From Chitinophagales bacterium (GTDB taxonomy: Bacteria; Bacteroidota; Bacteroidia; Chitinophagales; BACL12): a stretch of 36,692 nucleotides of DNA. Below the pieces are notes generated by a model that searched no databases, was not told where the DNA came from, and worked only from the letters and a program-made list of their open reading frames with translations. A program made the position numbers and the translations under genes. Positions 301-19,407 of this stretch are shown here, piece by piece. Every line of letters begins with the position of its first letter. Position 1 is the stretch's first letter. The stretch covers positions 1-36,692 of the forward strand of contig JBIOHA010000002.1 in the NCBI GenBank assembly GCA_044448625.1, in the 5' to 3' direction.

Positions 301-810
301 TTAAGAATTGCTTTTTTGATTTTGCTCGCGGATATAAACGATAAAGTCGGTTGTTATCAATTCGGTTATTCCGAGATTTCTCAACATGGTTATTATTTGT
401 CCCCGGTGATAAGTGGAATGATTCATACAATGCAAAATGATATCACCGTTTTTTGTTTGATTATCTTTTCCATTCATTGCTTTATAAAAACAGGTCGTAT
501 CAAAATAGCTTTCCATTCTTGTTTCAACAAACTTTAAAAAGTCTTCCGACTGCTGAATAAAATAAAGATCGTAGCCTGCAAAGTTATCGCCGTATTCCTC
601 GCTGGGCCACGTGTTCAGCGAAATGCCCTGAAGGCGGTTAAGCCATATTACCTGAGCATCCCAAATATGATAAATTGTTTTTCTTATAGTTGGGTAACTG
701 CTTAATGTTGGCGCATCAATAAACTCGGGCGGTAGTATTTGCAGAAATGATGAGATGCGTTTATTGGCCCAAACATTATAATCACATAGCGATATTAAAA
801 GTTTTTTCAT
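301..810 (-). CDS. DinB-family (damage-inducible, four-helix-bundle metalloprotein) protein
   Basis: 169-aa ORF with ATG at 808-810. Typical DinB-family length and His-containing motifs are present (IYHIWDAQVIWLNRL, LHCMNHSTYHRGQIITML). Confidence 0.8.
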   Translation of the reverse strand: MKKLLISLCDYNVWANKRISSFLQILPPEFIDAPTLSSYPTIRKTIYHIWDAQVIWLNRLQGISLNTWPSEEYGDNFAGYDLYFIQQSEDFLKFVETRMESYFDTTCFYKAMNGKDNQTKNGDIILHCMNHSTYHRGQIITMLRNLGITELITTDFIVYIREQNQKSNS

Positions 811-948
811 AACCCGGATTTAAAAGATCATCTAAAATAACAAACTTCAATTTCATTGTTTATTTGAAGAAACATAATTTTTGAACTGAACATTATCCGG
901 GCACCCACAAAAACGCAAATTGGTCAGATTAATTTCCATTCGGTATTA

Positions 949-2286
949 TCACTTTTTAAGGGAGTTGAAAAATGAACAACCGATCAACCTGTCGTACCCG
1001 CGATCGTAAACATGCTGATAAACGAGCACCTGGTAATCATTTTCGGTTTCATAGAAATTCCCCTCTGCAAAATTGAACTCAGCTATTTCTGATCCGGCAC
1101 TTTTAAACCCATAGAGATAATTATAGTAACCCTGCTTTAGATATAAATTGACTGAATATTGCTGGAGATCAAAATCGTACTCCATCTTGTTTTCATTGTT
1201 CATAAGTTGATTGGTCAGGTTGCCAAAAACATAAAATTCGCCCGAAGTGATAAAATATGGATACTGCAAAACAAAGTGCATCCATGCATAATCACCTTCC
1301 GTATTTATATCATTTACGATATCTGCCTGAATCACAAACTGTCCGTTGATGTCTTTTTCATAAAAATATTTCTGGTATATCCTGCTTTCGTCTACATTGA
1401 TATATACCTGGTAGCCAGCGTCATCTTTTTCTATTTTCCTTATCCTGTCGCTTTGAAAATGCAGTGTTTTGGTGTCAAATCGCCTATATTCTTTTCCTGC
1501 CGGAAAAACATTGGCGTCGTTATCATAGTATAACATGTCGTTGGTGATCATCCGGGGTTTGAGGTCATATCTCGCATTATCGAACCTCCCATTTTGCATT
1601 GCCGTAACTCTAATTTCATCAAACGGATTTGAAATGCCTGTGTTTTTAATATTCACATTGAAACTCAATTCCTGGAATTCATTTCTGTATTCAATAATGT
1701 TCGGGCGAAACACAGTTGCACTTACAATAGCTAATTCCTCCCAAACGAAAAAACGCTTTACGATCACAGGTGTATCGCGATCATCCTCCTCCCATATTTT
1801 CAATATATAGTTGCCACTCATTTTAAAATCAACATCATCGTTGGGGAAGGAAACAGAATAATGTGTGTAATGCTGGGATGTTCCAAACGAAAATTGATAA
1901 TCGTCGAACCTGTTTTCTTCAAATCCGTCGAGGTAGTCAAAATAGGTGAGATTGGATGGTTCCCAGTTTTGATTGCAGTGCTGAAAGGTATAATAATAAT
2001 TCACCACCCCACCCCGGAGATCATCAAAACTAAAAAGGAGTTCATCCTCCGAATTTAAAAGTATAACCGGATATGCAAGCTCAAGGTCGCTCCTTCCGAG
2101 TTGAATGGTTTTCAGGTTCCTGGTGTTGACAGCTTCCTTAATAATGGCTGATTCAATAACCGGTTCCGGGTTTTCAGAAATGATGGTTGTATCGGCAACA
2201 GGTTGAGCAAGAAGCAACCTTGCGTTAATAGTTAGTAGAAAATAAAAAGCTCCTGTAAAAAATGAAAATGCCGGTCGTATCCTCAT
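949..2286 (-). CDS. DUF5103 / type IX secretion system plug-like protein
   Basis: The ORF track gives 499 aa from 2448, but the first 54 aa (LLTSYFSLLTSYFPLLTSHFSLL...) translate the heptamer array. The ATG at 2284-2286 gives MRIRPAFSFFTGAFYFLLTINARLLLAQ, which looks like a signal peptide. The body matches the DUF5103 pattern as I recall it (LLFSFDDL..., YYYTFQHCNQNWEPSNL, SGNYILKIW). Confidence 0.65.
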   Translation of the reverse strand: MRIRPAFSFFTGAFYFLLTINARLLLAQPVADTTIISENPEPVIESAIIKEAVNTRNLKTIQLGRSDLELAYPVILLNSEDELLFSFDDLRGGVVNYYYTFQHCNQNWEPSNLTYFDYLDGFEENRFDDYQFSFGTSQHYTHYSVSFPNDDVDFKMSGNYILKIWEEDDRDTPVIVKRFFVWEELAIVSATVFRPNIIEYRNEFQELSFNVNIKNTGISNPFDEIRVTAMQNGRFDNARYDLKPRMITNDMLYYDNDANVFPAGKEYRRFDTKTLHFQSDRIRKIEKDDAGYQVYINVDESRIYQKYFYEKDINGQFVIQADIVNDINTEGDYAWMHFVLQYPYFITSGEFYVFGNLTNQLMNNENKMEYDFDLQQYSVNLYLKQGYYNYLYGFKSAGSEIAEFNFAEGNFYETENDYQVLVYQHVYDRGYDRLIGCSFFNSLKK

Positions 2287-2325
2287 ATGTAATTTATATA
2301 CCCGCTGCAATTTACCAATTTGGAT

Positions 2326-2457
2326 GGAGGAGGGAGGAAGAAGTGAGAAGTGAGAAGTAAGAAGTGGGAAGTAAGAAGTAAGAAGTGAGAAGTAAGAAGT
2401 GAGAAGTAAGAAGTAAGTGAGATTAAATTCTAACCTCTTATTTCTCACTTCTTACTT
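2326..2457. repeat. Heptamer tandem array A (AAGTRAG x11) with terminal inverted arm
   Basis: GGAGGAGGGAGGAAG lies at 2326-2340. Eleven contiguous heptamers follow at 2341-2417 (aagtgag x2, aagtaag, aagtggg, aagtaag x2, aagtgag, aagtaag, aagtgag, aagtaag x2). After a 26-nt loop, cttatttctcacttcttactt (2437-2457) is the reverse complement of 2390-2410 at 20 of 21 positions. The right arm abuts the mazG stop codon (2457-2459). Confidence 0.9.
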
Positions 2458-3260
2458 TAGTTTTCCAGCTTAGCTTCATCCCATAACTTATCCATCTCCT
2501 CCAATGTCATTTCGGTTAGTTGCCGCTGTTGCTCTTTTGCTTTTTGTTCGATGTATTGAAATCTGCGGATGAATTTTTTGTTGGTGTGCTCAAGTGCATT
2601 TTCGGGATCAATATGCATAAAGCGGGAGAGGTTGATCAATGAGAAAAGCAGGTCGCCGAATTCATCTTCTAGTTTTTCTTTGTCCGGATTTGGCATTAAA
2701 GCAATTTCCTTAAACTCGTTCAGCTCCTCATCCACTTTATCCCAAACCTCCGAAATATGTTCCCATTCAAATTTAACCTGCGCCGCTTTTTCCTGTATAC
2801 GGAAAGCTTTAATTACAGCCGGCAAACTTTGAGGCACCCCTTCGAGGGTAGATCTTTTTCCTTCTCTTAATTTTAGTTGCTCCCAATTCTTTTTCACTTC
2901 TTCATCATCTTTAACGGTGATTGTCTCGCCTGATTCTGCCGAAGGATAAATATGCGGATGACGATGGATGAGTTTCTCACATTGTGCATTCAGCACATCA
3001 GCTATTGTAAATTTATTTTGCTCTTCTGCTATCGTCGAATAAAAGATCATGTGCAGCATAATATCGCCGAGTTCCTCTTTAATTCCTTTCCAGTCGTTTT
3101 CGGTAATTGCATCCGCAAGCTCATAGGTTTCTTCAATAGTGAGATTACGCAGGGTATGAATTGTTTGTTTTTTATCCCAGGGACATTGGGTACGCAAGTC
3201 GTTCATAATATTCAATAATCTCGAAAACGCATCTTTTTTCAGTTCTGTTGATTGGTCCAT
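2457..3260 (-). CDS. mazG: Nucleoside triphosphate pyrophosphohydrolase MazG
   Basis: 267 aa with two tandem MazG-type domains (LTIEETYELADAI / LGDIMLHMIFYS, and DEFGDLLFSLINLSRF). ATG at 3258-3260, TAA at 2457-2459. Confidence 0.9.
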   Translation of the reverse strand: MDQSTELKKDAFSRLLNIMNDLRTQCPWDKKQTIHTLRNLTIEETYELADAITENDWKGIKEELGDIMLHMIFYSTIAEEQNKFTIADVLNAQCEKLIHRHPHIYPSAESGETITVKDDEEVKKNWEQLKLREGKRSTLEGVPQSLPAVIKAFRIQEKAAQVKFEWEHISEVWDKVDEELNEFKEIALMPNPDKEKLEDEFGDLLFSLINLSRFMHIDPENALEHTNKKFIRRFQYIEQKAKEQQRQLTEMTLEEMDKLWDEAKLEN

Positions 3261-3277
3261 TGGATAATGATTTATTA

Positions 3278-3419
3278 TGATGAGTGATGAGTAATGAGTG
3301 ATGAGTGAGGAGTAATGAGTTTAATTCCCGGACTGCATTTACTTCAAACTTCTGACTTCAAACTTCATACTTCAAACTTCATACTTCTTACTTCCCACTT
3401 CTTACTTCCTCCCCCCCTC
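3278..3419. repeat. Bipartite heptamer array B: (TGAGTRA)x6, 20-nt spacer, (ACTTCNN)x10, oligo-C/T cap
   Basis: The first sub-array spans 3281-3320 (tgagtga, tgagtaa, tgagtga, tgagtga, ggagtaa, tgagt). The spacer ttaattcccggactgcattt lies at 3321-3340. The second sub-array spans 3341-3410 (acttcaa, acttctg, acttcaa, acttcat, acttcaa, acttcat, acttctt, acttccc, acttctt, acttcct) and runs into ccccccctc. The element lies between the mazG start (3260) and the TonB-receptor stop (3426). Confidence 0.9.
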
Positions 3420-3425
3420 TATTCA

Positions 3426-6353
3426 CTAAAACGATTTTGTGATCTTAAAGAAATAGGTACTTCCAATCACAGGTGCTCCAACAAAATATTGCTGCTCCTT
3501 GTTATATAAATTCGTAACGAGCAAAGTAAACTGGGTATCTTTTAAATAATCAGGTGTATAATTCAAGGTTAAGTCGAGGTCATCAATTTGTTCTACTCGA
3601 CCGACATAGGCACCCGAGTTGGCGGGATAAGATTGTTGCCATCTGAAATTTAATCCTACATTCAGATCCAATTTATCGATATCATAAATGGCTCTCACAG
3701 CAAATTTATTTTTCGGTGCATTTAATCCAACATATCCGAGTTGTGCTCCTTCCAGCGGAACAGAATCTTTATCCACCCATGAATATGACAACATCAGAGT
3801 TATATCATCATTTACATACCAGTTGGCTCCCAGGTCGGCACCCCAAACAGAAACGTCGCCGAGGTTTACATAGGTAACATATTTTGCACCATCGGGATAT
3901 TGAGTAGGCGAAACTGTTCCAATTGGCAATCCCGCTCCTGCAGCGAGCACAAGATTAATTAATTCATCAACACCGGTTCCGTTGCTATTACCGCCGTAAT
4001 CAGGATCATCATCGAGATAAGCTGTTATAAGAGATGATAGGTCGTTGTTATCTGGATTATTATAATTTGCAGTAATTATTGGTGTTACATAAGCAGCGAG
4101 TTCTTCTCCGTCGATAAAAACATTTGGTGTGATGTCGGTAAGCGGACTCACATAATCCTGTATCATATTATAATAAACATCCACAGTTGCGAAAACTTTA
4201 TCATTGAACAAAGAACCTTTCCATCCGGCTTCAACGGTATTTGAAGCGGAATTGATAATAGGGCCGTAATCAGTTATATTTTCAGGGTCGATGATATCAA
4301 ACGATTCAGTTGTTAAATTGAGGGCCGCCACCTGATTTCCTTCAACCACAATATCTGCCGGTAAAAGAATGGAAGTTACTGCGGTCCCAACACCCATAAT
4401 AGTTGCATTAAATGCTGCAGTCAGCAATCCGAGTGTTGCATCCCAAATCACATTATTTAATTCGAGGCTGTTGTTGAGATTAAAATAATGATCAGATTCA
4501 TAGCCGAGATATTCGGCAAATGGTGAAGTAAATTCCGGCAATCCAAGTTCATCGTACTGGTAAGTAAATCCTTCGCGGTTTCCGATTGCAGATAATGGCA
4601 TACTCGGAATATAATCAGAACCTAATATTACCTGGAATTCATCGGCATAGGAAGTAAGATCTCCCAGTTGTAAAATATCAAGATTTAAATTGTTTGAGCT
4701 CGGTGCACTGAATGCCCTGTTATAGGTTAACCGGAAAGTATTTTTCTGATTTGCTTTATAAACTACAGCACCCCTTGGTGCAAAAAACGGGACATCTACA
4801 AAATTATGGTAGTCATATCTGAGAGCGGCAATGAAACTGAACTTGCTGGTTACCTGATAATCGCCCTGGATATATGCACCAATTTCTGTTATATTATCAT
4901 CATCTTCATTTTCTCCATTGATCGTGTTTTGCGTATCAGGCCTAGTAAAAATTCCATCAACACCATATACCAGGTTTATTTTTTTGTTCATTATTTCATC
5001 TGCATGCTGCACCTGGCCAACATATTGTTTTGAATGATCAATGATAAGGTCTCCCGTCCTGAATAAATAGGTATCACCGGCATCACTTCCATTAATAAAT
5101 CCCTGTGCAAACCAATCTTTGTACACATAGCGAAGCTGTGCATAATAATATTTCCACGATACTGCCTGTCCGCCACCGATACCTGTTAATTCAATACCGT
5201 CGTTTTCAGTTAATCCTCCGGTAAATATTAATTCAGCACGGTTCTTAAATTTATAATCAAGCCTGAGATCAAGGCCTATTTTTTCAATATGATTATTTCT
5301 TTCGTTGGAAACAGTGTCACCAACATTTACTCTTCCCTCGGCGGTTTGATATCCTTTTTGAATATAATTTGGTTCAAACGGATCATCATATAACCAATCG
5401 GTGCCTGATAAATATGTGAAGGTGATCTTATAACCGAATTTATCTTTTATTTTTCCTGCATGGCGAAATCCTGCTGTATAAAACATTCTGTCGCCAATAG
5501 ATTCATAATCGAATAATGGCCTGTAAGAAGTATCTATCAAACCTGTTGTTGGATCTTTTGGATTTGCAATTAAAATAGTATCTGATATTTTACTTCTGAA
5601 TCCAAACCCTACACTCGCTGTAGTAACAAAATCCTTTTCCTGTGCTAATGGTGATTTTGTAATGAAATGACAGACTCCATTTCCGCAGTTTGGTCCATAT
5701 AAAGCAGATGCAGGTCCTCTTAAAACTTCTATCCTTTCGAGGTCTTCATTGTCTGTGGGAATAAATGTGGCAACGTTTGCTCTCAGCGACGGAACTGCAG
5801 CATAACGATTATCAACCATCATAAGCAGCGACCCTGAAAAAATATTATTGAATCCCCTTACCACGACATTGGTTTGAATTAATCCGGTATTAATAATATC
5901 AACTCCCGGCGTTCCTTTAATATTGGCAACCGGAGTTATTGCAACCGTGTTTTTGATCTGCGCAGCTGTTATGAGTGTAATGGATGCAGGTGCATCGAGA
6001 ATTTTCTCCTGCCGTCTCGAAGCGCTTACTACCAAAGCATCGAGTTCAAATTCTTCAGACCTCAGGCTGACGGATATAAAATTTGTTGTCCCGATTGCGA
6101 TCTCCTGCTCGCCAAATCCAACTGAACGAATGATCAACATTGTTGCTGTTGGTGGGATGCTGAGGGAAAATTTTCCCTCGGGATCTGTAGCAGTACCAAT
6201 TGTGGCATCATCTTTCAGCACAACTGATGCTCCGGGAATGGATTCACCGGTGGCGGCATCATTTACCTGGCCTGTGATGGTCCTGTTCTGAGCCGCAAGC
6301 GGGAACGATGCTAGCAGAAAAATGGTAATTAAAAGGGTAAAAAGATTTCTCAT
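3426..6353 (-). CDS. TonB-dependent outer-membrane receptor with N-terminal carboxypeptidase-regulatory-like domain
   Basis: 975 aa with signal peptide MRNLFTLLITIFLLASFPLAAQ. It has a CarboxypepD_reg-like segment (RTITGQVNDAATGESIPGASVVLKDD), a plug motif (RIEVLRGPASALYGPN), a long beta-barrel-like region and a terminal aromatic residue (...FKITKSF). No adjacent SusD-like gene is present. Confidence 0.9.
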   Translation of the reverse strand: MRNLFTLLITIFLLASFPLAAQNRTITGQVNDAATGESIPGASVVLKDDATIGTATDPEGKFSLSIPPTATMLIIRSVGFGEQEIAIGTTNFISVSLRSEEFELDALVVSASRRQEKILDAPASITLITAAQIKNTVAITPVANIKGTPGVDIINTGLIQTNVVVRGFNNIFSGSLLMMVDNRYAAVPSLRANVATFIPTDNEDLERIEVLRGPASALYGPNCGNGVCHFITKSPLAQEKDFVTTASVGFGFRSKISDTILIANPKDPTTGLIDTSYRPLFDYESIGDRMFYTAGFRHAGKIKDKFGYKITFTYLSGTDWLYDDPFEPNYIQKGYQTAEGRVNVGDTVSNERNNHIEKIGLDLRLDYKFKNRAELIFTGGLTENDGIELTGIGGGQAVSWKYYYAQLRYVYKDWFAQGFINGSDAGDTYLFRTGDLIIDHSKQYVGQVQHADEIMNKKINLVYGVDGIFTRPDTQNTINGENEDDDNITEIGAYIQGDYQVTSKFSFIAALRYDYHNFVDVPFFAPRGAVVYKANQKNTFRLTYNRAFSAPSSNNLNLDILQLGDLTSYADEFQVILGSDYIPSMPLSAIGNREGFTYQYDELGLPEFTSPFAEYLGYESDHYFNLNNSLELNNVIWDATLGLLTAAFNATIMGVGTAVTSILLPADIVVEGNQVAALNLTTESFDIIDPENITDYGPIINSASNTVEAGWKGSLFNDKVFATVDVYYNMIQDYVSPLTDITPNVFIDGEELAAYVTPIITANYNNPDNNDLSSLITAYLDDDPDYGGNSNGTGVDELINLVLAAGAGLPIGTVSPTQYPDGAKYVTYVNLGDVSVWGADLGANWYVNDDITLMLSYSWVDKDSVPLEGAQLGYVGLNAPKNKFAVRAIYDIDKLDLNVGLNFRWQQSYPANSGAYVGRVEQIDDLDLTLNYTPDYLKDTQFTLLVTNLYNKEQQYFVGAPVIGSTYFFKITKSF

Positions 6354-6535
6354 AGGCCTGGTTAGCGGGTTTAAATGAATAGGATGCTATTTTTACACTT
6401 TGAAATGAAATTCTTGTATTTGCCGGCTTGAATATCCAAAAATACAAATATGCGTCACATTCAAATTTCGGCAACTTAGTTTCAAAAATTCAACATGAAA
6501 ATTAAATCATTGAACGTAATAATCAAAACCTGTTC

Positions 6536-9500
6536 TTGTTAAAAAAATTTACACTCAATCTCATCCTGGGTATTGCATTGCTGTGCGCTGCATCAGTTGC
6601 GGTGTTGTTGTACAGGCATGCAGAAAAAATAAATGAACCAGAAGTAAGTGCCAGGAGAATTGAGGTGGAATTTCAGAACCTCGAAAAAAAGATCATTGCA
6701 ACTATTTCCGATTCGGTGATCATAAGTAATCTTATTACCGACTCTTATACTTTTAATGAATTCAGCAGCCTGGTTGATAAGCCATTTGGAATGATCATTT
6801 ACCAGGAAGACAGTGCTGTTATTTGGACGAATAATTTTATTACACCTGTTAAAGCTCAATTGGTATATAATGATGCACCCCTGTTTATTTCCGAATCAAA
6901 CGGCGAATATGTTATTTACCAGCATGATTTCCCCGGCAATGTTCATGTTATAGGTTTTTTACCGCTGCAGTTTGAATTCGGCATTAAAAACAAATATCTC
7001 AACCACGTTAAAACACCGGGCATTCAAATTCCGGAACATTTGAAATTAAAGGCCCGCAGCGAACCCGATGCTTATGCTGTGCATTCTTTGAACGGCAACG
7101 AAATTTTTTATATTGCTGAAGACGATAATATCCAAAATGTAGTTATCTATAGTAAGGGGATGTATTTTTTTATATGCTGTACATTTATTCTGCTGCTGAT
7201 CACTTGTTTTGGGATCGCTAAATCCGCCATAAATAAATTTAACCGGATCGCCTCAACAGGCTTCCTCCTCGTTTTGCTGGCAGGCGTTTACCTGCTTACT
7301 AATTATTTATTATACGATCACATATTGAGTTATTTGCCCTTGTTTGATCCGCAATATTATGGTTCACCGGGTATTGCTGATTCTACCGGCGACCTGCTGA
7401 TTAAAACAGCGCTGTTATTTTGTTTTGCACTTTTCTTTTCCAAATATTTCCGGATCAGGCTTCCTGATGGTAAAGGCGCAACCTTTAATTTATTGCTGCT
7501 CGTATCAATGGCAGTTATAATATGCTGCTGCTCTTTGCTAACTGGCAATATTTTCCGCAGTCTTATTATTGATTCTTCAATATCGTTCAATATCCATAAT
7601 TTCTTTTCCCTGAATTATTTTAGCTTCATCGGGTTTCTTTGTATTTCGATATTGTTGCTCAGTTATTTTTTTATTATTTCCAGATGTGTTGAGATCATTG
7701 TAAAAAACATACAGCGCAAATTCTTTTTTTCTTTGATTGTTATAGCGACTGGAATAGCGGTGCTCATTGTTCAGCGATTGCTCAACCATGCAATGCAAAT
7801 TGACATGATCATTTTTGTTGCGGGATTTGTGATCATAAGAGAATTTTTAATTGCCCGACGCATCAGCACCCGTTCTTTGGGTGGAATGATGATATGGTTA
7901 ATTTATTTTTCCGCATTCAGCGCATATATTTTTAACAGTTCACTTGACCATAAAGTGGAAGAAACCAAAAGGTTGTTTGCAATTAAGAAATCAATTGAGA
8001 AGGATCCGATAACGGAATATTTATTTAAAGAACACCAGGTAAATATCCAAAAACAACTTTCAGCACAGGGAGTATCGCTTGAAACAGAAGAAAAAATTCG
8101 CCCGGGTATCATCAACCAGATACGCCAGGATCTGCAATCAAATTATTTTAAAAAATATAACACCGATATTTTTATTTTCAGGAACGACAGCCTGCTGCTT
8201 TTTACCGGCGATGATAATATTAATTCAAGACTCATATTTATTGATGCAATAGAAAATAACGGCGAGTTTACTGCAGCTGAAAACCTGTATTTTATTAATG
8301 ACTATACCGGCAGTTATTATTACCTGGCTGAATTGCCTGTGAGCAGGGATTCTGTCGGTGATTTTACGGCTTATCTCAAAATGGTGCCTAAAAAATTCAG
8401 CGGCGAAAGTATTTATCCTGAATTGCTAATTGACGATGATCTGCGGACAGCAGAAAGCTTCATCAATTTTGATTATGCAATTTATTCAGATCATACCCTT
8501 TCGGAAAGGGAAGGTGAATATTCTTATCCTTTAATGGACATATTTTATATAAATAAAGATGAGGAAGTGCTTGATATTATCCAAAATGATTATGATCACT
8601 ATATATATAAGGTAAATGAAACGAAAAAAGTGGTGGTTTCCACACCAATGCAAAGCTGGTTTGAGCCGGTTTCAATATTCTCCTATTTATTTTTCTTTTA
8701 CCTGGTTTTCCTGGTAATAATTCTTTCACTGGACATTATTACGAGGATCGCACAGGGAAATATTGTTTTAACCGACTGGATAAATACCTCTCTGCAGAAT
8801 AAAATTCAAACCTCAGTGATCAGCCTGATTATTTTTGCTTTCATCATGATGGGTGTTGCTACTATTTATTATATCTCCAACCAATATAATTTCTCACATA
8901 AACAAAGGTTGCTCAATAAAATTGAAGCCGTTCAAACAAATATTGATTTTCTCATTGGAGAGACTAGAAAAAAGGGCAACAGGGTGGTTACCAATCAGCA
9001 ATTAAAAAAGATCGGCAACCGGGTAACCGAACTTTCTGAAATTCACGACATGGACATTAATATTTATAAGCCAAGTGGTGATCTCATGTCGTCGTCGCAG
9101 CCGGATATTTTTGAAAAAGGCCTCGTTTCAAAAAAGATGAATTCGCTTGCCTATTTCAAAATGAGCTGCGATAAAGAAACCTGGTATATCCAAACGGAAA
9201 ATATCGGCGACCTTTCATTTTTATCCGCTTATGTTCCTGTGTTGGATGATAGTGGTGAAACAATGTTTTATCTCAACCTGCCTTATTTTGCCACGGAACA
9301 AAACCTGCGCACAGAAATTTCCTCATTCATGGTAACCCTTGTAAATGTGTATGTGCTGTTATTGATCGTGGCAGGAATAATTGCATATATCGTTTCAAGA
9401 TCTATCACCAGCCCACTTGCAACCATAGCCGGAAAATTCAAGGGAATTAAACTGGGTAAAATGAATGAACCCATACGGTGGACGCATGAAGATGAGATTG

Positions 9501-10247: not shown

Positions 10248-11564
10248 ATGAATAGAAAGATATCGGAACAATTATTTGCAGAAGCCAAGAAATATTTTCC
10301 AGGTGGAGTAAGTTCACCGGTAAGGGCATTTAAATCGGTAACCGGATCACCACTTTTTATTCAGCGTGGAAAGGGTAGCAGGATCTGGGATGAAGATGGC
10401 AACGAATTTATAGATTATTGTTGTTCATGGGGACCGCTGATATTAGGCCATGCAAATGAAAATGTTTTATCCGCTGTGAGTCAAGCATTGTTAAAAGGAA
10501 CATCTTTTGGCACTCCGTCAAAATATGAAAATACCCTCGGCAAATTGATCCTTGAAAATAATCCTTTTATTGAAATGATCAGGTTTGTTTCATCAGGTAC
10601 TGAGGCTGTAATGAGTGCAATACGATTGGCAAGAGGATATACGGGTAAAAATAAGATCCTGAAATTTGAAGGTTGTTATCATGGTCATAGCGATGGGTTG
10701 CTGGTTAAAGCCGGATCAGGATTGGTAACATTTGGTGAAACATCTTCCAAAGGTGTTCCTCCTTCTGTTGCAAATGATACTATAGTTGTTGAACTTGATA
10801 ATGAGCATGCAGTAGAAGAAGCAGTGAAAACGTTCAGGAATGAGATCGCCTGCATTATTATCGAACCGATTCCCGCAAACAACGGATTATTATTGCAGAA
10901 GCGATCGTTTTTAGAATTTCTAAGAAAAATTTGCACTGAAAATAATATCCTCCTCATTTTTGATGAAGTGATCAGTGGTTTTAGAATTGGATTTTCAGGA
11001 GCTGCTGGTTATTATTCCATAAAACCGGATATTATCACCTTTGGAAAAATTATCGGCGGCGGTTTACCAGTTGGTGCTTATGGTGCAGGAGAAGAAATAA
11101 TGCGCATGATCTCACCCGATGGCCCTGTTTATCAGGCGGGTACCTTGTCGGGAAATCCATTGTCGATGTCTGCTGGTATTGCACAATTAACCGCCTGCCT
11201 GCAAAAAGATTTTTATGATAAACTGGAAGCTAAAACAAAATTGATCGCCGACAGTGTAAATGCGTTTACCTTGCAAAATAAATTACCGGTCAACATTTTA
11301 CATATCGGTTCAATTTTCTGGATATCCTTTTCTGAACATTGTATGATAACAAAAGCAGCGCAGATAGAACCGGCAGGGATTTCAAAATTCAAATATTTTC
11401 ACCATGAATTATTGAACCGTGGAATTTATATCGGGCCTTCGGGTTATGAGGTTTGCTTTGTTTCAGATGCGCATACAACAGACGATCTTAACATAACAGC
11501 TAAAATTATTTGCGAGGTGCTAGCGTTGGTATTTGATGAAAAATATTTACCCGACAATGATTAA
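10248..11564 (+). CDS. hemL: Glutamate-1-semialdehyde 2,1-aminomutase
   Basis: 438 aa with N-terminus ...FPGGVSSPVRAF, FDEVISGFR, and the PLP-lysine motif ITFGKIIGGGLPVGAYG. It starts 1 nt after the upstream kinase stop. Confidence 0.95.
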   Translation: MNRKISEQLFAEAKKYFPGGVSSPVRAFKSVTGSPLFIQRGKGSRIWDEDGNEFIDYCCSWGPLILGHANENVLSAVSQALLKGTSFGTPSKYENTLGKLILENNPFIEMIRFVSSGTEAVMSAIRLARGYTGKNKILKFEGCYHGHSDGLLVKAGSGLVTFGETSSKGVPPSVANDTIVVELDNEHAVEEAVKTFRNEIACIIIEPIPANNGLLLQKRSFLEFLRKICTENNILLIFDEVISGFRIGFSGAAGYYSIKPDIITFGKIIGGGLPVGAYGAGEEIMRMISPDGPVYQAGTLSGNPLSMSAGIAQLTACLQKDFYDKLEAKTKLIADSVNAFTLQNKLPVNILHIGSIFWISFSEHCMITKAAQIEPAGISKFKYFHHELLNRGIYIGPSGYEVCFVSDAHTTDDLNITAKIICEVLALVFDEKYLPDND

Positions 11565-12561
11565 TTTACATAAAACCAGATATTCACTTTTTTTTCATGT
11601 GGTGTTTATTTACATCATTGCTTCATTTATCTGGTGGTCGTACCTGCTGCACCGAAATAACTATGAAAATTATGATGAGATCATTAAAAGGGAGCAATTT
11701 GTATATACCCAAAACGGAGGCAAATTATCTGCATTTAAATCAACACCGGTATTTATTAAGGTGAACAACGAATTTAAACGTACCGAGCTGATGTTGTATG
11801 GGGAAGGAATTGTTTTCATTGGATTGATCACACTGGGTTTCTGGCGGATAAGACGAACATTCAGATCGGAAATTGACCTCACCAGGCAGCAGAATAACTT
11901 TTTGTTATCTATTACCCACGAATTAAAATCGCCTCTGGCATCTTTAAAGTTGTCGATGCAAACAATCAGAAAACATGAACTCGATGGTGAACAGGTAAAA
12001 AATATGGCTGATATGTCGCTTGATGATATTGAACGCCTTGAATTATTGGTTGAAAACATTTTGCTGGCGTCAAAGATCGAGAGTGCAAACTTCCGCCTCA
12101 ATAAAGAATTAATGGACCTTTCTTCCATAACACAAAATATTTTTGACCGCGAGAAAATTAAACATAAAGACCAGCGCCATTTTACCAGTAAAATTGAAGG
12201 CAACATTTATGTTTACGGCGACAGGTTCTCATTTTCATCGGTAATTTATAACCTTATCGAAAACGCGATTAAATATTCAGAGAGAGGTTCTGAGATCGGT
12301 GTTGAATTAACCGGCGATGAAAAAAATGCATATCTAAATATTTCCGATACGGGCATTGGAATTCCTGAGAACGAAAAAATGAAGATATTCGGAAGGTTTT
12401 ACAGGATCGGCACTGAAGAAACACGAAAAACAAAAGGAACAGGATTGGGATTATTTATCGTTAAACATGTGGTGTTGATGCATGCGGGGGAAGTGCTGGT
12501 TAAACACAATCAACCAAGGGGAAGTATTTTTGAAGTGAGGATTCCGGTTGGTGCATTGTAG
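11536..12561 (+). CDS. Two-component sensor histidine kinase (two N-terminal TM segments, short loop)
   Basis: It has an H-box (SITHELKSPLASLKL), N-box (NLIENAIKYS), G1 (DTGIGIPENE) and G2 (GTGLGLFIVKH). Start candidates are TTG 11533, ATG 11536 and ATG 11557. All of them overlap the hemL 3' end (stop 11562-11564). Confidence 0.85.
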   Translation: MKNIYPTMINLHKTRYSLFFHVVFIYIIASFIWWSYLLHRNNYENYDEIIKREQFVYTQNGGKLSAFKSTPVFIKVNNEFKRTELMLYGEGIVFIGLITLGFWRIRRTFRSEIDLTRQQNNFLLSITHELKSPLASLKLSMQTIRKHELDGEQVKNMADMSLDDIERLELLVENILLASKIESANFRLNKELMDLSSITQNIFDREKIKHKDQRHFTSKIEGNIYVYGDRFSFSSVIYNLIENAIKYSERGSEIGVELTGDEKNAYLNISDTGIGIPENEKMKIFGRFYRIGTEETRKTKGTGLGLFIVKHVVLMHAGEVLVKHNQPRGSIFEVRIPVGAL

Positions 12562-12563
12562 AT

Positions 12564-12782
12564 GTTAAGCACAGAGGAAAACAGAAGTTGAAGCACAGAG
12601 GGACACAAAGGGACACAGAAAATTGTTTATGGAAAGGATTAAACACAGAGGGGCGCAGAGGAACAGATAATTATATACGTAAAGAATTCAGCACAGAGGG
12701 GCACAAAGGAACACAGAAAATTATATACGTAAAGAATTAAGTACAGAGGGGCACAGAGGAACACAGAAATTGAACCACAAAA
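12564..12782. repeat. Phased CACARAG array (about 50-bp unit x4 plus a partial unit)
   Basis: CACARAG-like heptamers start at 12570, 12580 | 12594, 12604, 12614 | 12644, 12654, 12662 | 12692, 12702, 12712 | 12742, 12752, 12762 | 12776. These are triplets at 10-bp spacing repeated every 48-50 bp. Units 12669-12718 and 12719-12768 differ at 3 of 50 positions. Confidence 0.9.
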
Positions 12783-12926: not shown

Positions 12927-13622
12927 ATGAACAACCGAATATTAATTGTAGAAGATGAGGATCACATTCGTGAGAACCTCAAACTTAACCTCGAATTGGA
13001 AGGCTATGAAGTGATAGCGGTTTCAAACGGGGCAAAAGCGATCAAAGCGTTTCGGGAGCAACGGTTTGATCTGATCATACTCGACGTGATGCTTCCTGAA
13101 ATGGATGGCTTTGATGTTTGTGAGCAAATCAGGCTGGATGATCGTGAAACTGCTATCTTATTTCTTACTGCAAAAGATGCGAGTGTCGACAAGATCAAAG
13201 GATTAAAAACAGGTGGCGATGATTATATGACCAAACCATTTAATCTCGAAGAACTATTATTGAGAATACGCAATTTGTTGAAACGGTCCTCGAAAAATCC
13301 CGCGGAAGATAAATTCCATGAATACGAATTTGGAGGAAACACCATCAATTTCGTTACTTATGAAGCGAAAGGATTAAATGGAGATGTAAAGCTCACCAAC
13401 AAAGAATTAAAGTTGTTGAAATTGCTTATTGACAGAAAAAATGAAGTTGTTTCCCGCACCCTGATTTTGCAAACTGTTTGGGGTTATGACGTTTATCCGT
13501 CAACCAGGACAATAGATAATTTTATTCTTGCCTTTAGAAAATACTTTGAGAGGGACCCTAAAAACCCGCTTTATTTTCATGCAATAAGAGGGGTGGGGTA
13601 TAAGTTTGCAGATGTGAAATAA
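12927..13622 (+). CDS. OmpR/PhoB-family response regulator (receiver plus winged-helix DNA-binding domain)
   Basis: 231 aa with ILIVEDEDHI, the phospho-acceptor region DLIILDVMLPEMDG, MTKPFNLEEL, and a C-terminal winged-helix ending ...IRGVGYKF. Confidence 0.9.
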   Translation: MNNRILIVEDEDHIRENLKLNLELEGYEVIAVSNGAKAIKAFREQRFDLIILDVMLPEMDGFDVCEQIRLDDRETAILFLTAKDASVDKIKGLKTGGDDYMTKPFNLEELLLRIRNLLKRSSKNPAEDKFHEYEFGGNTINFVTYEAKGLNGDVKLTNKELKLLKLLIDRKNEVVSRTLILQTVWGYDVYPSTRTIDNFILAFRKYFERDPKNPLYFHAIRGVGYKFADVK

Positions 13623-16735: not shown

Positions 16736-17869
16736 TTAGTTTATGGGAACCAGCATCATTTCCTTCATCTTCTCTACTACAAAATCAACCTCCTGTATCG
16801 TGTTGTACTTTGAAAATGAAAACCGCACGGCAGCAGAATTCGGTTCGCGGTTGAGATGCGCAATAACATGTGAGCCAATATTGCTGCCACTGCTGCAGGC
16901 ACTTCCTCCGCTAACCGCAATGCCGGCGATATCCAAATTAAATAGCAGGAGATCATTTTTTTCGCTTGGCGGAAAATTCACGTTGAGCACAGTATATAAA
17001 CCATCATCCGGAGAATTAAAAATAATTCCGGGCAACTCATTTGTTAAACGTTCTTTCAAATGTGACCTTAATCCTGAAATATATTTTTTTGTTTGTTCCA
17101 ATTCGCGATAACCGATCTCCAATGCCTTGGCCAATCCAACAATGCCGTATAAATTTTCAGTTCCGGCCCGCATATTTCTTTCCTGTGCTCCACCGTGAAT
17201 GAGCGGTTTAATGGATGCGTCTGCATTTACATATATAAATCCAACACCTTTAGGACCATGAAATTTATGTGCTGCACAGGAAATAAAATGGATCTTCGTT
17301 TTTTGAAGATCCAGCGGATAATGTGCAATTGTTTGAACGGTATCACAATGAAAATAAGCGTTGTAAACTTTACAGAGCGCACTCACTCTGTCAATATCGA
17401 GCAGCGTACCTATCTCATTATTCGCATGCATTAAACTCACCAGGGTTTTTTCAGTGGAGTTTTTAAGTAATGATTCGAGGTCGTCGTAAATTACAGTGCA
17501 ATCTTTTCCCAGCTTAACCATGCTGAGTTTTATCCTGCCTTCATTTATTAATGCGTCAACCGTATGCGTTACCGCATGATGTTCAATTGGCGAAGAAATA
17601 ATATGAGTTACCCCCAGATCGCGGACGCTGCATTGAAGCGCCATATTATTTGCCTCGGTGCCACCGCTTGTAAAAAATATCTCTCCGGGGGAGACATGGA
17701 ATATTGAGGCAATTGTTTTTCTTGCTTTTTCGATCGCAGACCTGGTTTCCCTTCCATAAGAATGAATAGAAGAAGGATTGCCAAAATGATTTTCAAGATA
17801 GGGAAGCATCGCCTCCATCACCTCAGGATCAAGCCGTGTTGTGGCAGCATTATCAAAGTAAACTCGCAT
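16736..17869 (-). CDS. Cysteine desulfurase (NifS/IscS family)
   Basis: 377 aa with MRVYFDNAATTRLDPEV, PLP-lysine motif SCAAHKFHGPKG, and catalytic-Cys loop SGGSACSSG. Confidence 0.9.
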   Translation of the reverse strand: MRVYFDNAATTRLDPEVMEAMLPYLENHFGNPSSIHSYGRETRSAIEKARKTIASIFHVSPGEIFFTSGGTEANNMALQCSVRDLGVTHIISSPIEHHAVTHTVDALINEGRIKLSMVKLGKDCTVIYDDLESLLKNSTEKTLVSLMHANNEIGTLLDIDRVSALCKVYNAYFHCDTVQTIAHYPLDLQKTKIHFISCAAHKFHGPKGVGFIYVNADASIKPLIHGGAQERNMRAGTENLYGIVGLAKALEIGYRELEQTKKYISGLRSHLKERLTNELPGIIFNSPDDGLYTVLNVNFPPSEKNDLLLFNLDIAGIAVSGGSACSSGSNIGSHVIAHLNREPNSAAVRFSFSKYNTIQEVDFVVEKMKEMMLVPIN

Positions 17870-17909
17870 GCAAATTAGTTAATCTCACAAAATTAAGATA
17901 AACGGGCGA

Positions 17910-18022
17910 AATGAGTAATGAGTAATGAGTAATGAGTTTGTGCCCGAGCAGGATCTAAATTCCTTATTCCTTATTCCTTATTCCTTACTTCTTGCTCACC
18001 ACTGACCACTCCCCACTCCCCA
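17910..18022. repeat. Bipartite heptamer array C: (ATGAGTA)x4, 22-nt spacer, nine pyrimidine-rich heptamers
   Basis: atgagta x4 spans 17911-17937. The spacer ttgtgcccgagcaggatctaaa lies at 17938-17959. The second sub-array is ttcctta x4 (17960-17987), cttcttg, ctcacca, ctgacca and ctcccca x2 (to 18022). The glmM stop codon follows 2 nt later at 18025-18027. Confidence 0.9.
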
Positions 18023-18024
18023 TC

Positions 18025-19407
18025 TTATTTCATTATCAATTTAATATCCTCCATCATTTTTCTGTTAATACTTTCTGCCGTGGTTTTGGTAGAACTTTCT
18101 GAATAAATTCTGATAATAGGCTCGGTATTGCTTGCCCGGAGATGCACCCAGTCGGTACCCATTTCAATTTTGAGCCCGTCTTCCTTATTTAATTTTTCTT
18201 TTTTGTATTTTTCTTCCATTTGTTTTAATATGGAAATGACGTCTGTTCCATCAGGCAGTTCAATTCTGTTTTTCGCCATAAAATAATTGGGATATTCTGC
18301 ACGCAACCTGGAACAACTTTTTTTAGATGTTGCAAGATGTGATAAAAACAGGGCGATCCCCACCAGTGCATCTCTTCCATAATGCAATGCTGGATAAATA
18401 ATTCCGCCGTTGCCTTCCCCGCCGATGATCGCATTTACTTCTTTCATTTTTTCAACGACATGCACCTCGCCAACTGCACTTTGATAATGTTCCACCCCAT
18501 ATTTTTTTGACACATCACGCAAAGCCTGAGTAGATGATAAATTGGAAACCGTATTTCCTTTTTTATGTTTCAGCACATAATCGGCTATGGCAACCAAAGT
18601 ATATTCTTCACCAAACATGTCGCCATTTTCACAAACAATTGCAAGGCGGTCAACATCGGGATCTACCACCAGGCCCACATCGGCCTTTTGATGTTTTACT
18701 TCATGTGCAATAGTTGACAAATGCTCGGGAAGTGGCTCAGGATTATGCGGGAACCGTCCGTTTGGATTAGTAAATAATTCAACAACATCAAATACACCAA
18801 TTGCAACCAATAACTCAGGAACAGAGATTCCGCCAGTTGAATTTACACAATCGATAACAACACGAAAATTCCTTTCCTTTATTGCTTCTTTATTCACCAG
18901 CTCAAGGTCCTGAATTTTATCAATATGTTTTTGGATATAATAAAATTTTTGCTGGTATTCACCTAATTTATCTACGTCGCTATAAATGATATTTTCGTCT
19001 TTTACAATTGCAAGTACTTCTTCACCATCACTACCTGAAATGAATTCACCAAAGTGATTTACTAATTTCAGTGCATTATAATTTTTTGGATTATGAGATG
19101 CTGTTATTATTATTCCGCCCCCGGCATTTTCACGGGGAACGGCGATCTCAACAGTTGGCGTGGTAGATAATCCGAGATCAACTACTTTAATTCCAATTGA
19201 TTGTAAAGTGCCGATCACAAGGTGGTTAACCATTTCCCCACTTATTCTTGCATCACGGCCAATTACAATGGTATTATTTCCTGTTTTTCGTTTAACCCAG
19301 GTTCCAAAGGCTGCAGTAAACTTTATAATATCTTCCGGGGTTAGATTTTGTCCGGGCTCCCCTCCAATTGTTCCTCTGATCCCCGAAATTGATTTAATTA
19401 GTGTCAT
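18025..19407 (-). CDS. glmM: Phosphoglucosamine mutase
   Basis: 460 aa with N-terminal SISGIRGTIGG, active-site Ser loop ITASHNPKNYNALK, and alpha-D-phosphohexomutase architecture. Confidence 0.85.
   Translation of the reverse strand: MTLIKSISGIRGTIGGEPGQNLTPEDIIKFTAAFGTWVKRKTGNNTIVIGRDARISGEMVNHLVIGTLQSIGIKVVDLGLSTTPTVEIAVPRENAGGGIIITASHNPKNYNALKLVNHFGEFISGSDGEEVLAIVKDENIIYSDVDKLGEYQQKFYYIQKHIDKIQDLELVNKEAIKERNFRVVIDCVNSTGGISVPELLVAIGVFDVVELFTNPNGRFPHNPEPLPEHLSTIAHEVKHQKADVGLVVDPDVDRLAIVCENGDMFGEEYTLVAIADYVLKHKKGNTVSNLSSTQALRDVSKKYGVEHYQSAVGEVHVVEKMKEVNAIIGGEGNGGIIYPALHYGRDALVGIALFLSHLATSKKSCSRLRAEYPNYFMAKNRIELPDGTDVISILKQMEEKYKKEKLNKEDGLKIEMGTDWVHLRASNTEPIIRIYSESSTKTTAESINRKMMEDIKLIMK

Follow-up and report, generated by a model that had tools for sequence, protein, structure and literature searches.

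The window, by which we mean the whole 36.7-kb stretch of DNA analyzed here, is a single metagenomic contig of an uncultured Chitinophagales bacterium. It carries mazG between genes for a T9SS plug protein and a TonB-dependent receptor (TBDR), and tandem heptamer arrays occupy both of the spacers that flank mazG (Table 1). The ORF listed at 949-2448 is an artefact, running on through array A; the true start of the plug gene is the ATG at 2286. A Bacteroidota-type -7 box (TATTTTTG) is found upstream of the TBDR gene at 6437-6444, whereas neither the mazG-flanking spacers nor the interior of the A-mazG-B segment holds a TAnnTTTG box, and a consensus scan of the spacers found no sigma-70-like promoter. 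Pfam annotation of 22 proteins revealed no integrase, invertase, or transposase among the large ORFs of the window, and no Rfam family was matched in the window or in the related loci L280 and L281.

Table 1. Genes, arrays, and inverted matches at the mazG locus, in window coordinates
Feature	Position	Strand	Description
T9SS plug protein gene	949-2286	-	Pfam PF17116; collinear with relatives
Plug-proximal leader/promoter-like segment	2287-2325	-	GGTAAATTGCAGC...; conserved; compared with L280 3354-3400 and L368 4925-5005
Array A cap	2326-2340	+	oligopurine GGAGGAGGGAGGAAG; pairs with the array B cap
Array A	2341-2417	+	AAGTRAG x11; CTYACTT on the minus (mRNA-sense) strand
Perfect inverted match, left arm	2354-2380	+	27 nt; holds the single AAGTGGG variant unit
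Degenerate 4-unit purine array	2428-2457	- (sense)	AAGTAAG AAGTGAG AAATAAG AGGTTAG; begins at the mazG stop codon; 5' arm of the local hairpin
mazG	2457-3260	-	nucleoside triphosphate pyrophosphohydrolase, 267 aa; Pfam PF03819
G-free (ACTCATY)x6 array, mazG leader	3278-3320	-	RATGAGT on the + strand; heptamer family other than that of A and B
Array B	3340-3408	-	AAGTNNG x10 on the sense strand, 3' of the TBDR stop codon
Perfect inverted match, right arm	3382-3408	+	27 nt
Array B cap	3408-3419	+	oligopyrimidine CCTCCCCCCCTC
TonB-dependent receptor (TBDR) gene	3426-6353	-	collinear with relatives

Array A lies 40 nt from mazG on its 3' side and array B lies 80 nt from it on its 5' side, starting 18 nt past the TBDR stop codon. 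The bracketing of mazG is thus as claimed in the original prediction, and both arrays and both G/C-rich caps sit where that prediction had placed them. Tandem Repeats Finder returned array A at 2338-2417 (period 7, 11.4 copies, 86% matches), array B at 3340-3408 (9.9 copies, 79% matches), and the RATGAGT array with 6.1 copies. All three consist of head-to-tail 7-nt units in at least four copies and fit the definition of a heptanucleotide SSR. The RATGAGT array had been taken for the first half of array B, but it is really another unit, repeated six times, and the same unit recurs at 17910-17937 of the window and in relative L281. A third copy of the A/B family, degenerate, inverted, and four units long, had been overlooked, as had the hairpin that it can form with array A.

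The two arrays share more than their unit. Positions 2355-2379 (AAGTAAGAAGTGGGAAGTAAGAAGT) had been described as the exact reverse complement of 3383-3407; they are, and the perfect match is one base longer at each end, or 27 nt in all. It is embedded in an imperfect inverted repeat of 78 nt at 82% (2332-2409 / 3339-3416), in which the arms beyond the perfect repeat mismatch at about 1 in 5 positions, and the caps GGAGGAGGGAGGAAG and CCTCCCCCCCTC are complementary at 11/12 positions. The 27-nt block takes in the sole GGG variant unit of each array. The three cap-proximal units of array B read AAGTAAG AAGTGGG AAGTAAG and the remainder are AAGTWTG or AAGTCAG; on either side of the block, array A has one unit type throughout (AAGTRAG). 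Under a random-sequence model the probability of a 27-mer inverted match is negligible, but this model is too generous because A and B belong to one repeat family. Given the actual unit content, a shared block of at least 27 nt has a probability of 0.004 (unit-order permutation) to 0.018 (resampling units), and the block therefore exceeds what a common repeat family accounts for. The earlier attribution of the match to a shared repeat family and not to chance is borne out by these values and by the occurrence of the unit in many phyla.

Comparison with relatives shows that the position of mazG is ancestral and its orientation is not. At all 14 related loci (L280, L281-L284, L365-L370, L001, L003, and L004) the genes run DinB(-), T9SS plug(-), mazG(+), then a sulfotransferase(-) if there is one, and TBDR(-), so that mazG(+) adjoins plug(-); most relatives carry the sulfotransferase gene in that position. 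The window lacks the sulfotransferase gene and has mazG, but no other gene, in the opposite orientation, between flanks that stay collinear. Alignment of the window by blastn to six relatives (L280, L281, L283, L004, L001, and L003) gave an inverted match for 2466-3251 and collinear matches for 312-2147 and 3427-8600. By these alignments, mazG is inverted with respect to every related genome found, which shows an evolutionary inversion. The nearest MazG, that of L280, is 84% identical to that of the window, and those of L281-L284 are 75-77% identical. No relative exceeded 84% MazG identity, and a scan of metagenome contigs returned none closer than 65%.

Inverted repeats are present at both breakpoints of this inversion. 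On the left, homology to L280 and L368 ends at 2325/2326, precisely where the purine cap starts; on the right, the breakpoint falls between 3252 and 3426, an interval that contains array B, and is placed more narrowly between the array B cap and the TBDR stop codon at 3426. The inverted arrays thus mark the breakpoints of a single-gene inversion. In L280, the nearest relative, a cap-plus-array seed, GGAGGGAAGTAAGAAGTAAGAA (capped AAGTAAG), is located downstream of the uninverted mazG, on one side only, and the L280 contig terminates in another array. Arrays on both sides of a mazG in the ancestral orientation were found in no relative.

The arrays of the window are members of a widespread class. 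AAGTRAG arrays were found at more than 119 loci in many phyla, and RATGAGT and ACTTCAA arrays occur in many unrelated soil contigs. Among 56 low-GC AAGTRAG loci, 23 have an array that starts at most 32 nt from a same-strand stop codon, and the window arrays fit this placement rule, with the purine strand just 3' of a stop codon and the G-poor complement either ahead of a start codon or serving as the 3' arm of a hairpin. An inverted 16-mer is present within 250 nt at 29 of 119 AAGTRAG loci, as compared with 3-4 in controls, and the inverted partner is 3' of the purine arm for 39 of the 40 partners of AAGTRAG arrays. At longer range this preference is not seen: beyond 250 nt, same-family copies in other genomes are inverted in 10 cases and direct in 12. 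The original prediction had allowed that the same arrays at unrelated positions would speak against it, and that is what is found in part, given the spread of the unit over many phyla and the like frequency of inverted and direct copies beyond 250 nt. A general rule that inverted pairs of AAGTRAG arrays bracket genes was rejected, as strict both-strand matches occur at 1 of 119 loci and inverted copies equal direct ones beyond 250 nt. Nor do arrays always mark rearrangement breakpoints; the second array-bearing spacer of the window (17870-18024) is collinear in 13 relatives. This spacer measures 155 nt in the window versus 36-80 nt, array-free, in 10 of the 13 collinear relatives, and the units that relatives have at the same gene ends differ greatly (AATTGAC, GTCCTAY).

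Heptamer repeats with comparable properties are on record. Cyanobacteria reportedly contain STRR heptamer repeats, said to have been treated by Mazel and colleagues in 1990. Heptameric SSRs of unit GGGAATC in Xanthomonas and GGGGAYT in Nostoc (Rehm et al. 2015, PMC4692102) show the same strand polarity and the same inverted pairs as AAGTRAG (PMC4692102), TAACTGA repeats are another intergenic heptamer SSR (MacGregor 2015, PMC4679880), and long SSRs of bacterial intergenic regions are also noted, in the account that PMC4679880 gives of the work (Mrazek et al. 2007, as cited in PMC4679880). Like these known heptameric SSRs, the arrays described here are tandem 7-nt intergenic units that vary in length and sequence among relatives, the purine/G-rich coding strand lies a few tens of nucleotides past a stop codon with the complement before start codons, convergent stem-loop-capable pairs are frequent, and several heptamer arrays may share one spacer. 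Unlike them, AAGTRAG is AT-rich and not G4-forming, and the A/B pair is parted by a whole gene and not by a short loop. The positions of the repeats of Rehm et al. are more conserved (PMC4692102), whereas A and B coincide with a gene inversion. The literature searched held no description of the AAGTRAG unit.

We propose that arrays A and B represent one slippage-generated heptanucleotide SSR (AAGTRAG/AAGTNNG) in two copies, of a class that fills the spacers between genes both in this Chitinophagales lineage and across many other bacteria. Opposed around mazG, and with their 27-nt identical block and complementary caps, they constitute an inverted repeat around a 1-kb segment, and recombination or replication template switching between them most likely flipped mazG in this lineage. 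The arrays probably caused the inversion, and we assign a probability of roughly 55% to the reading that they were the substrate of an evolutionary event that placed mazG in line with the TBDR gene. The flip would have deprived mazG of its own divergent promoter region. Now that mazG follows the TBDR gene in the same direction and has no recognizable promoter of its own, its transcription probably comes by read-through from the TBDR promoter. Models of inversion at plasmid inverted repeats, reportedly those of Bi and Liu from 1996, are known, and a 27-nt identity tract is at the lower limit for RecA-dependent recombination. Neither a crossover inside the 27-nt block nor a breakpoint in a palindrome loop reproduces all the features of the locus. 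The present arrays have probably been remodeled since the inversion, because array A is homogeneous beyond the 27-nt block, contrary to a simple crossover inside it.

The proposed event has parallels of two kinds. As with inversions between IS copies or rrn operons, each breakpoint carries an inverted repeat and only the middle is flipped between collinear flanks; those inversions, however, use kilobase-scale repeats, whereas A and B are short imperfect microsatellites (27 nt perfect, 78 nt at 82%), and the inverted segment here is one housekeeping gene. Like the mazG locus, the invertible promoters and shufflons of Bacteroidota, which are site-specific switches worked by tyrosine or serine recombinases, have short inverted repeats around about 1 kb in a Bacteroidota host. 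Those switches differ from the mazG locus, where there is no nearby recombinase gene and no internal promoter, the content is a complete housekeeping gene, and the repeats are tandem arrays and not a defined recombination site.

It is possible that the inversion and the loss of the sulfotransferase gene came about by an unrelated mechanism, and that arrays later colonized the new junction spacers, with the likeness of A and B due to gene conversion or seeding; the arrays would then be markers of the breakpoints and not the cause of the flip. Arrays do expand a spacer without rearrangement, as at 17870-18024; their turnover is fast, with AATTGAC and GTCCTAY at the same gene ends in relatives; and the homogeneity of array A over the shared block suggests expansion after the event. 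This order of events would nonetheless have to place arrays of the same family, opposed, with complementary caps and a 27-nt block (P = 0.004-0.018), at both junctions, and L280 has its capped AAGTAAG seed beside mazG before any inversion. We therefore consider it rather unlikely. The orientation of mazG in the contig could also be an artefact, in which the assembler crossed the inverted repeat wrongly and the true genome has the ancestral order. A segment bounded by inverted repeats is a classic source of orientation ambiguity for assemblers, and the evidence comes from one metagenomic contig whose MazG protein has no exact match in any other record. With only 27 nt perfect and arms that then differ at about 1 in 5 positions, however, reads of 100-150 nt or k-mers of at least 31 resolve the repeat. 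Array A is homogeneous as assembled, and flipping the segment back would make both arrays chimeric; the lost mazG promoter region and sulfotransferase gene are independent of orientation. On this evidence an assembly error is quite improbable.

The 4-unit array that begins at the mazG stop codon can pair with the proximal units of array A as its 3' arm, in inverted pairs of 28-30 bp at about 90%, with a predicted folding energy of -39.8 kcal/mol as RNA (z = -5.3) and -19.7 kcal/mol as DNA (z = -5.8). The stem is AT-rich and is followed by CUUCUUA repeats. By comparison, the spacer 5' of mazG (3261-3425) gave no significant RNA fold (z = +0.56), and the 17870-18024 spacer pairs weakly through G-U pairs (z = -1.0). 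Array A, rich in pyrimidines on the sense strand, is the predicted pyrimidine arm for the 4-unit array and also leads into the plug gene, and the local hairpin would close the transcript ahead of the plug promoter, with a putative role as a terminator or stabilizer. In its purine-arm/loop/pyrimidine-arm layout, directly 3' of the mazG stop codon and ahead of a promoter-proximal segment, it is like Rho-independent terminators and REP/BIME palindromes. Rho-independent terminators, however, have a GC-rich stem of 5-20 bp and a U tract, whereas this stem is 28-30 bp, AT-rich, and heptamer-built, with no U tract; a consensus scan of 2000-3700 found no canonical Rho-independent terminator.

The arrays might instead be a functional regulatory device, either for phase-variable inversion of mazG or as a long-range B-A RNA stem on a TBDR-mazG-plug read-through transcript, a stem that would enclose the mazG ORF and control its translation, processing, or stability. 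The predicted B-A duplex, caps included, reaches -103.5 kcal/mol, and folding the entire 1149-nt read-through RNA to its minimum free energy gives 82 long-range pairs. Such a stem is possible and, in the model, thermodynamically very favorable, in competition with a strong local hairpin. The local arm takes about 4 of the 11 pyrimidine-array units, so both structures could coexist, and the flanks are symmetric, so that in either orientation mazG is preceded by a purine array and followed by a pyrimidine array. Against these points, the local hairpin forms first in transcription, translation of mazG would disrupt a stem of 1-kb range, the arrays are in no orthologue and hence have no covariation or conservation support, and inverted and direct same-family neighbors are equally common in other genomes. 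The earlier suggestion that the inverted repeats could support inversion survives as an evolutionary event, in that mazG is flipped with respect to 14 related loci with collinear flanks and breakpoints in the array spacers. As an active switch it fares poorly, with no recombinase or invertase gene in the 36.7-kb window and no promoter box inside the segment, and we regard a regulatory device as improbable.

It had also been suggested that the arrays bound a gene-sized cassette. Complementary terminal caps and arrays do look like the terminal inverted repeats of a mobile unit (MITE- or composite-like) inserted between the TBDR and plug genes. The mazG gene behaves, however, as a vertical orthologue in its ancestral place: relatives have it in the same plug-TBDR position, and it has diverged as its neighbors have (74% versus 69-74% to L281; 78.6% versus 77% to L280). 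There is no target-site duplication (flanks TTGGAT / TATTCA), no transposase gene in the window, and the unit was not found a second time. We rejected the reading as a MITE, composite transposon, or cassette, which we consider extremely improbable.

Overall, the mazG locus offers a structural consequence of a repeat class for which, to our knowledge, there is so far no agreed function. Few long simple repeats are as over-represented in bacterial genomes as heptamer microsatellites, and here an opposed pair of one family sits exactly at the breakpoints of a single-gene inversion. Regularities that can be tested at the RNA level come with the family, as AAGTRAG is present in many phyla, usually at stop codons, with the purine arm 5' of the pyrimidine arm in 39/40 cases. 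A much bolder proposal, and one that we hold to be doubtful, is that, in Bacteroidota as in other bacteria rich in such arrays, inverted heptamer arrays are a general, previously unrecognized substrate for small inversions the size of a gene, repeatedly flipping single genes in and out of line with adjacent ones and making or breaking operons, and that A-mazG-B may still invert rarely or fold as an RNA clamp around mazG. If the mazG case is general, heptamer arrays would bring about fine-scale changes in gene order and remodel operons, effects that synteny studies have not credited to microsatellites.

The gene mazG has been inverted in place in this contig of an uncultured Chitinophagales bacterium, and heptamer arrays lie at both junctions of the inversion. 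The alignment of orthologous plug-mazG-TBDR loci that the original prediction proposed as a check was made with every related locus keeping the neighbourhood (L280, L281–L284, L365–L370, L001, L003 and L004; 14 loci, at least nine lineages). The order in these relatives is DinB(−), T9SS plug protein(−), mazG(+), in most a sulfotransferase(−), TonB-dependent receptor (TBDR)(−) and histidine kinase(+). Every gene neighbouring mazG in the window is on the minus strand, and mazG lies on the same strand as these neighbours, unlike in all 14 related loci. Accordingly, blastn aligns window positions 312–2147 and 3427–8600 in the same orientation as the relatives and 2466–3251 inverted. The closest MazG is 84% identical (P0002, from a Logan contig) and the next are 74–77% identical. 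By blastn, mazG diverges from its relatives as much as the neighbour genes do, so this is the resident copy, an orthologue turned round where it stood, and no imported gene.

On the left, sequence shared with the relatives (gctgcaatttaccaattt[a/g]gatg) reaches to 2325/2326, the very point at which array A's cap starts; on the right it resumes with the TBDR stop. The promoter region that mazG had ancestrally (GATGCCAAGATAATT...) is gone, as is the sulfotransferase (PF00685; 6946–7689 in L281) that separates mazG from TBDR in most relatives; it is absent between 3260 and 3426 here, and also from L003 and L370. Both spacers are thus heptamer arrays, apart from 39 nt beside the plug gene. The relatives carry other heptamers at gene ends (AATTGAC at the mazG stop, GTCCTAY at the sulfotransferase stop). 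In L280, the nearest relative, which has the ancestral orientation, a capped seed, GGAGGGAAGTAAGAAGTAAGAA, is already present downstream of mazG, and the contig ends in an (ACTCACC) array. At the far edge of the window, non-coding positions 1–54, upstream of the DinB gene region, match L280 1036–1089 and L281 3622–3709; identity is 100% with the nearest relative and 89–98% with four others, against only about 70–77% for the flanking genes. The segment, truncated by the window edge and without an Rfam match, is a candidate for a conserved regulatory element or small RNA.

Features of the mazG region and of a second array-bearing spacer
Feature	Unit, sequence or family	Positions	Strand
DinB-family protein		301–810	minus
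T9SS plug protein		949–2286	minus
Array A cap (oligopurine)	GGAGGAGGGAGGAAG	2326–2340	
Array A (period-7 tandem array)	AAGTRAG x11	2338/2341–2417	
mazG	PF03819	2457–3260	minus
Array B (period-7 tandem array)	ACTTCNN x10	3340–3408	
Array B cap (oligopyrimidine)	CCTCCCCCCCTC	3408–3419	
TBDR		3426–6353	minus
Class-V aminotransferase		16736–17869	minus
Phosphoglucomutase		18025–19407	minus

The two arrays and their outer caps are as originally described, the caps being largely complementary to each other by inverted-repeat and exact-sequence checks. The reported reverse complementarity of 2355–2379 and 3383–3407 is exact, and the perfect match is in fact 27 nt, not 25 (2354–2380 and 3382–3408), within an imperfect inverted repeat of 78 nt with 82% identity. 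The segment 3278–3320, read at first as the first half of array B, consists of another unit, RATGAGT (ACTCATY on the sense strand), and a degenerate four-unit copy of the AAGTRAG repeat at 2428–2457, abutting the mazG stop in the orientation opposite to array A, had been overlooked. Along the sense strand, the TBDR stop codon is followed by 6 nt, the cap GAGGGGGGGAGG, array B as (AAGTNNG)x10, a 19-nt spacer, (ACTCATY)x6, 17 nt and the mazG ATG; after the mazG coding sequence and its TAA stop come (AAGTRAG-like)x4, a loop of about 10–22 nt, array A as (CTYACTT)x11, the cap CTTCCTCCCTCCTCC, the conserved 39-nt segment and the plug ATG. A mechanically called ORF at 949–2448, which begins at a GTG and adds 54 codons to the plug gene by reading through array A, was rejected as an artefact; the gene starts at the ATG at 2286, which is followed by a signal-peptide-like N-terminus. 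Heptamer arrays can thus inflate ORF predictions.

Random sequence would hardly ever give such an inverted match, but this is too lenient a null for two arrays of one repeat family. With each array's actual units kept and their order permuted or the units resampled, a shared block of at least 27 nt arises at P = 0.004 to 0.018. The original attribution to a shared repeat family and not to chance is correct, and the block goes beyond what family membership explains. The block also holds the only AAGTGGG variant of each array and adjoins the complementary G/C-rich caps. Arrays A and B are therefore related by descent or sequence exchange, beyond mere family membership.

Inversion between inverted repeats is a textbook mechanism. 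Arrays of the same family in opposite orientation form an inverted repeat around mazG, and recombination or replication template switching between them could have flipped the gene. We infer this causal step, and an array-mediated flip is the best-supported reading. Three points weaken it. Among the relatives compared there is no intermediate in which arrays flank a still uninverted mazG on both sides. Array A has one unit type on either side of the 27-nt block; a simple crossover within it would not be expected to leave this pattern, and so the arrays were probably remodelled after the inversion. Finally, arrays can expand in a spacer without rearrangement, as in the 155-nt spacer at 17870–18024, between the phosphoglucomutase and class-V aminotransferase genes. 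This spacer has the same layout as the AAGTRAG pairs described below. There, the phosphoglucomutase stop is followed on the sense strand by GGGGAGT-like x4, AAGGAAT x4, a 21-nt loop and ACTCATT x4, three or four differing arrays in all, upstream of a retained −7 box, TAATTTTG (17888–17895). They pair weakly, via G-U pairs (z = −1.0). Thirteen relatives are collinear across this spacer, which is array-free and only 36–80 nt long in 10 of them. Elsewhere in the window, a tandem repeat at 12591–12769 (period about 50 nt, 3.6 copies, 83% matches), containing the 10-nt sub-repeats CACAGAGGGG / CACAAAGGAA, lies between histidine kinase (11533–12561) and response-regulator (12927–13622) genes.

Of the suggested inversion or deletion, inversion gains support as an evolutionary event, but not as a programmed DNA switch of mazG: Pfam annotation of the large ORFs (22 proteins) shows no recombinase gene in the 36.7 kb, and the segment has no promoter inside it. 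The layout is symmetric, with a purine array upstream of mazG and a pyrimidine array downstream in either orientation, so that sequence alone cannot tell whether flipping persists. It is unlikely that the orientation reflects a contig misassembled across the repeat, since the perfect repeat spans just 27 nt and array A is homogeneous in the orientation assembled. A gene-sized cassette or MITE bounded by the arrays, also proposed, fails: there is no target-site duplication and no transposase, and mazG is orthologous in place.

A long-range stem between arrays B and A on a read-through transcript would be very stable on paper, with a predicted duplex energy of −103.5 kcal/mol and 82 long-range pairs in the minimum free energy fold of the 1149-nt RNA. 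However, a translated 800-nt ORF separates its arms, no conservation or covariation is available for testing it, and a local hairpin would form before it. This hairpin, a 28–30-bp pairing of the four-unit copy with the proximal stretch of array A, is predicted at −39.8 kcal/mol as RNA (z = −5.3) and −19.7 kcal/mol as DNA (z = −5.8). No significant fold is predicted for the spacer upstream of mazG (z = +0.56), and Rfam returned no family match.

The arrays are heptanucleotide simple-sequence repeats, a widespread kind whose outlines are known. When one genome per species was scanned for the exact pattern, AAGTRAG arrays turned up at more than 119 loci (L081–L199 among the matches listed) in many phyla, the matches listed including Bacteroidota, Cyanobacteria, Gemmatimonadota, Acidobacteriota, Planctomycetota, Patescibacteria, Nitrospirota, Bacillota, Verrucomicrobiota and Proteobacteria. 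At 23 of 56 low-GC loci among the matches listed, the purine array contains the end of a same-strand ORF or has one no more than 32 nt to its 5′ side. The unit contains TAA or TGA and, since 7 is not divisible by 3, a run of three units places a stop codon in each of the three frames. An inverted 16-mer (two mismatches or fewer) lies within 250 nt at 29/119 loci among the matches listed, compared with 3–4 loci for reversed or complemented control units, and such pairs fold into long hairpins. With up to three mismatches the partner is 3′ of the purine arm in 39/40 loci (among the matches listed); whichever strand is read, the purine array thus comes first, followed by a loop and the pyrimidine array. 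Beyond 250 nt, same-family arrays in other genomes are inverted at 10 loci and direct at 12, so bracketing alone is not special. The unit's spread over many phyla and this balance at a distance count in part against the original prediction, which was to fail if the same arrays stood at unrelated positions. In placement at stop codons and inverted pairing, AAGTRAG arrays resemble the intergenic GGGAATC repeats of Xanthomonas and GGGGAYT repeats of Nostoc, whose G-rich strand lies on the coding strand 0–50 bp after stop codons, whose complement precedes start codons, and which form 70–75 convergent pairs per genome (PMC4692102). Some Bacteroidetes spacers contain heptamer direct repeats alongside other heptamers (PMC4679880).

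In soil metagenomes, many unrelated contigs bear RATGAGT and ACTTCAA arrays. For window 3262–3500, contig depths over the RATGAGT array add up to hundreds in three soil runs (X1–X3), coming from many contigs whose flanks are unrelated, indicating that this array is common across soil bacteria. In L281 (2340–3100; also L282), six to seven copies of a roughly 103-nt unit comprise GATTCACG repeats and an (AATGAGT)x3-5 block between CGAA and TTTG, nearly identical to window 17904–17941; it resembles a composite element, dispersed or tandem, built on a heptamer array.

Heptamer arrays placed at stop codons and pairing into hairpins thus form a known class that has received little study. The AAGTRAG unit, spread very widely across phyla and strictly purine-first in polarity, is new as far as the papers searched show. 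Also new is the combination in which microsatellite arrays are the inverted repeats at the two breakpoints where a single housekeeping gene was inverted. Scans of the mazG-flanking spacers found no canonical terminator, no sigma-70-like promoter and no Bacteroidota −7 box (TAnnTTTG); this box occurs upstream of TBDR (6437–6444) and of several other genes in the window. Having lost its own promoter region, mazG is now likely read through from the TBDR promoter, and the transcript would be closed by the local hairpin before it reaches the conserved segment next to the plug gene.
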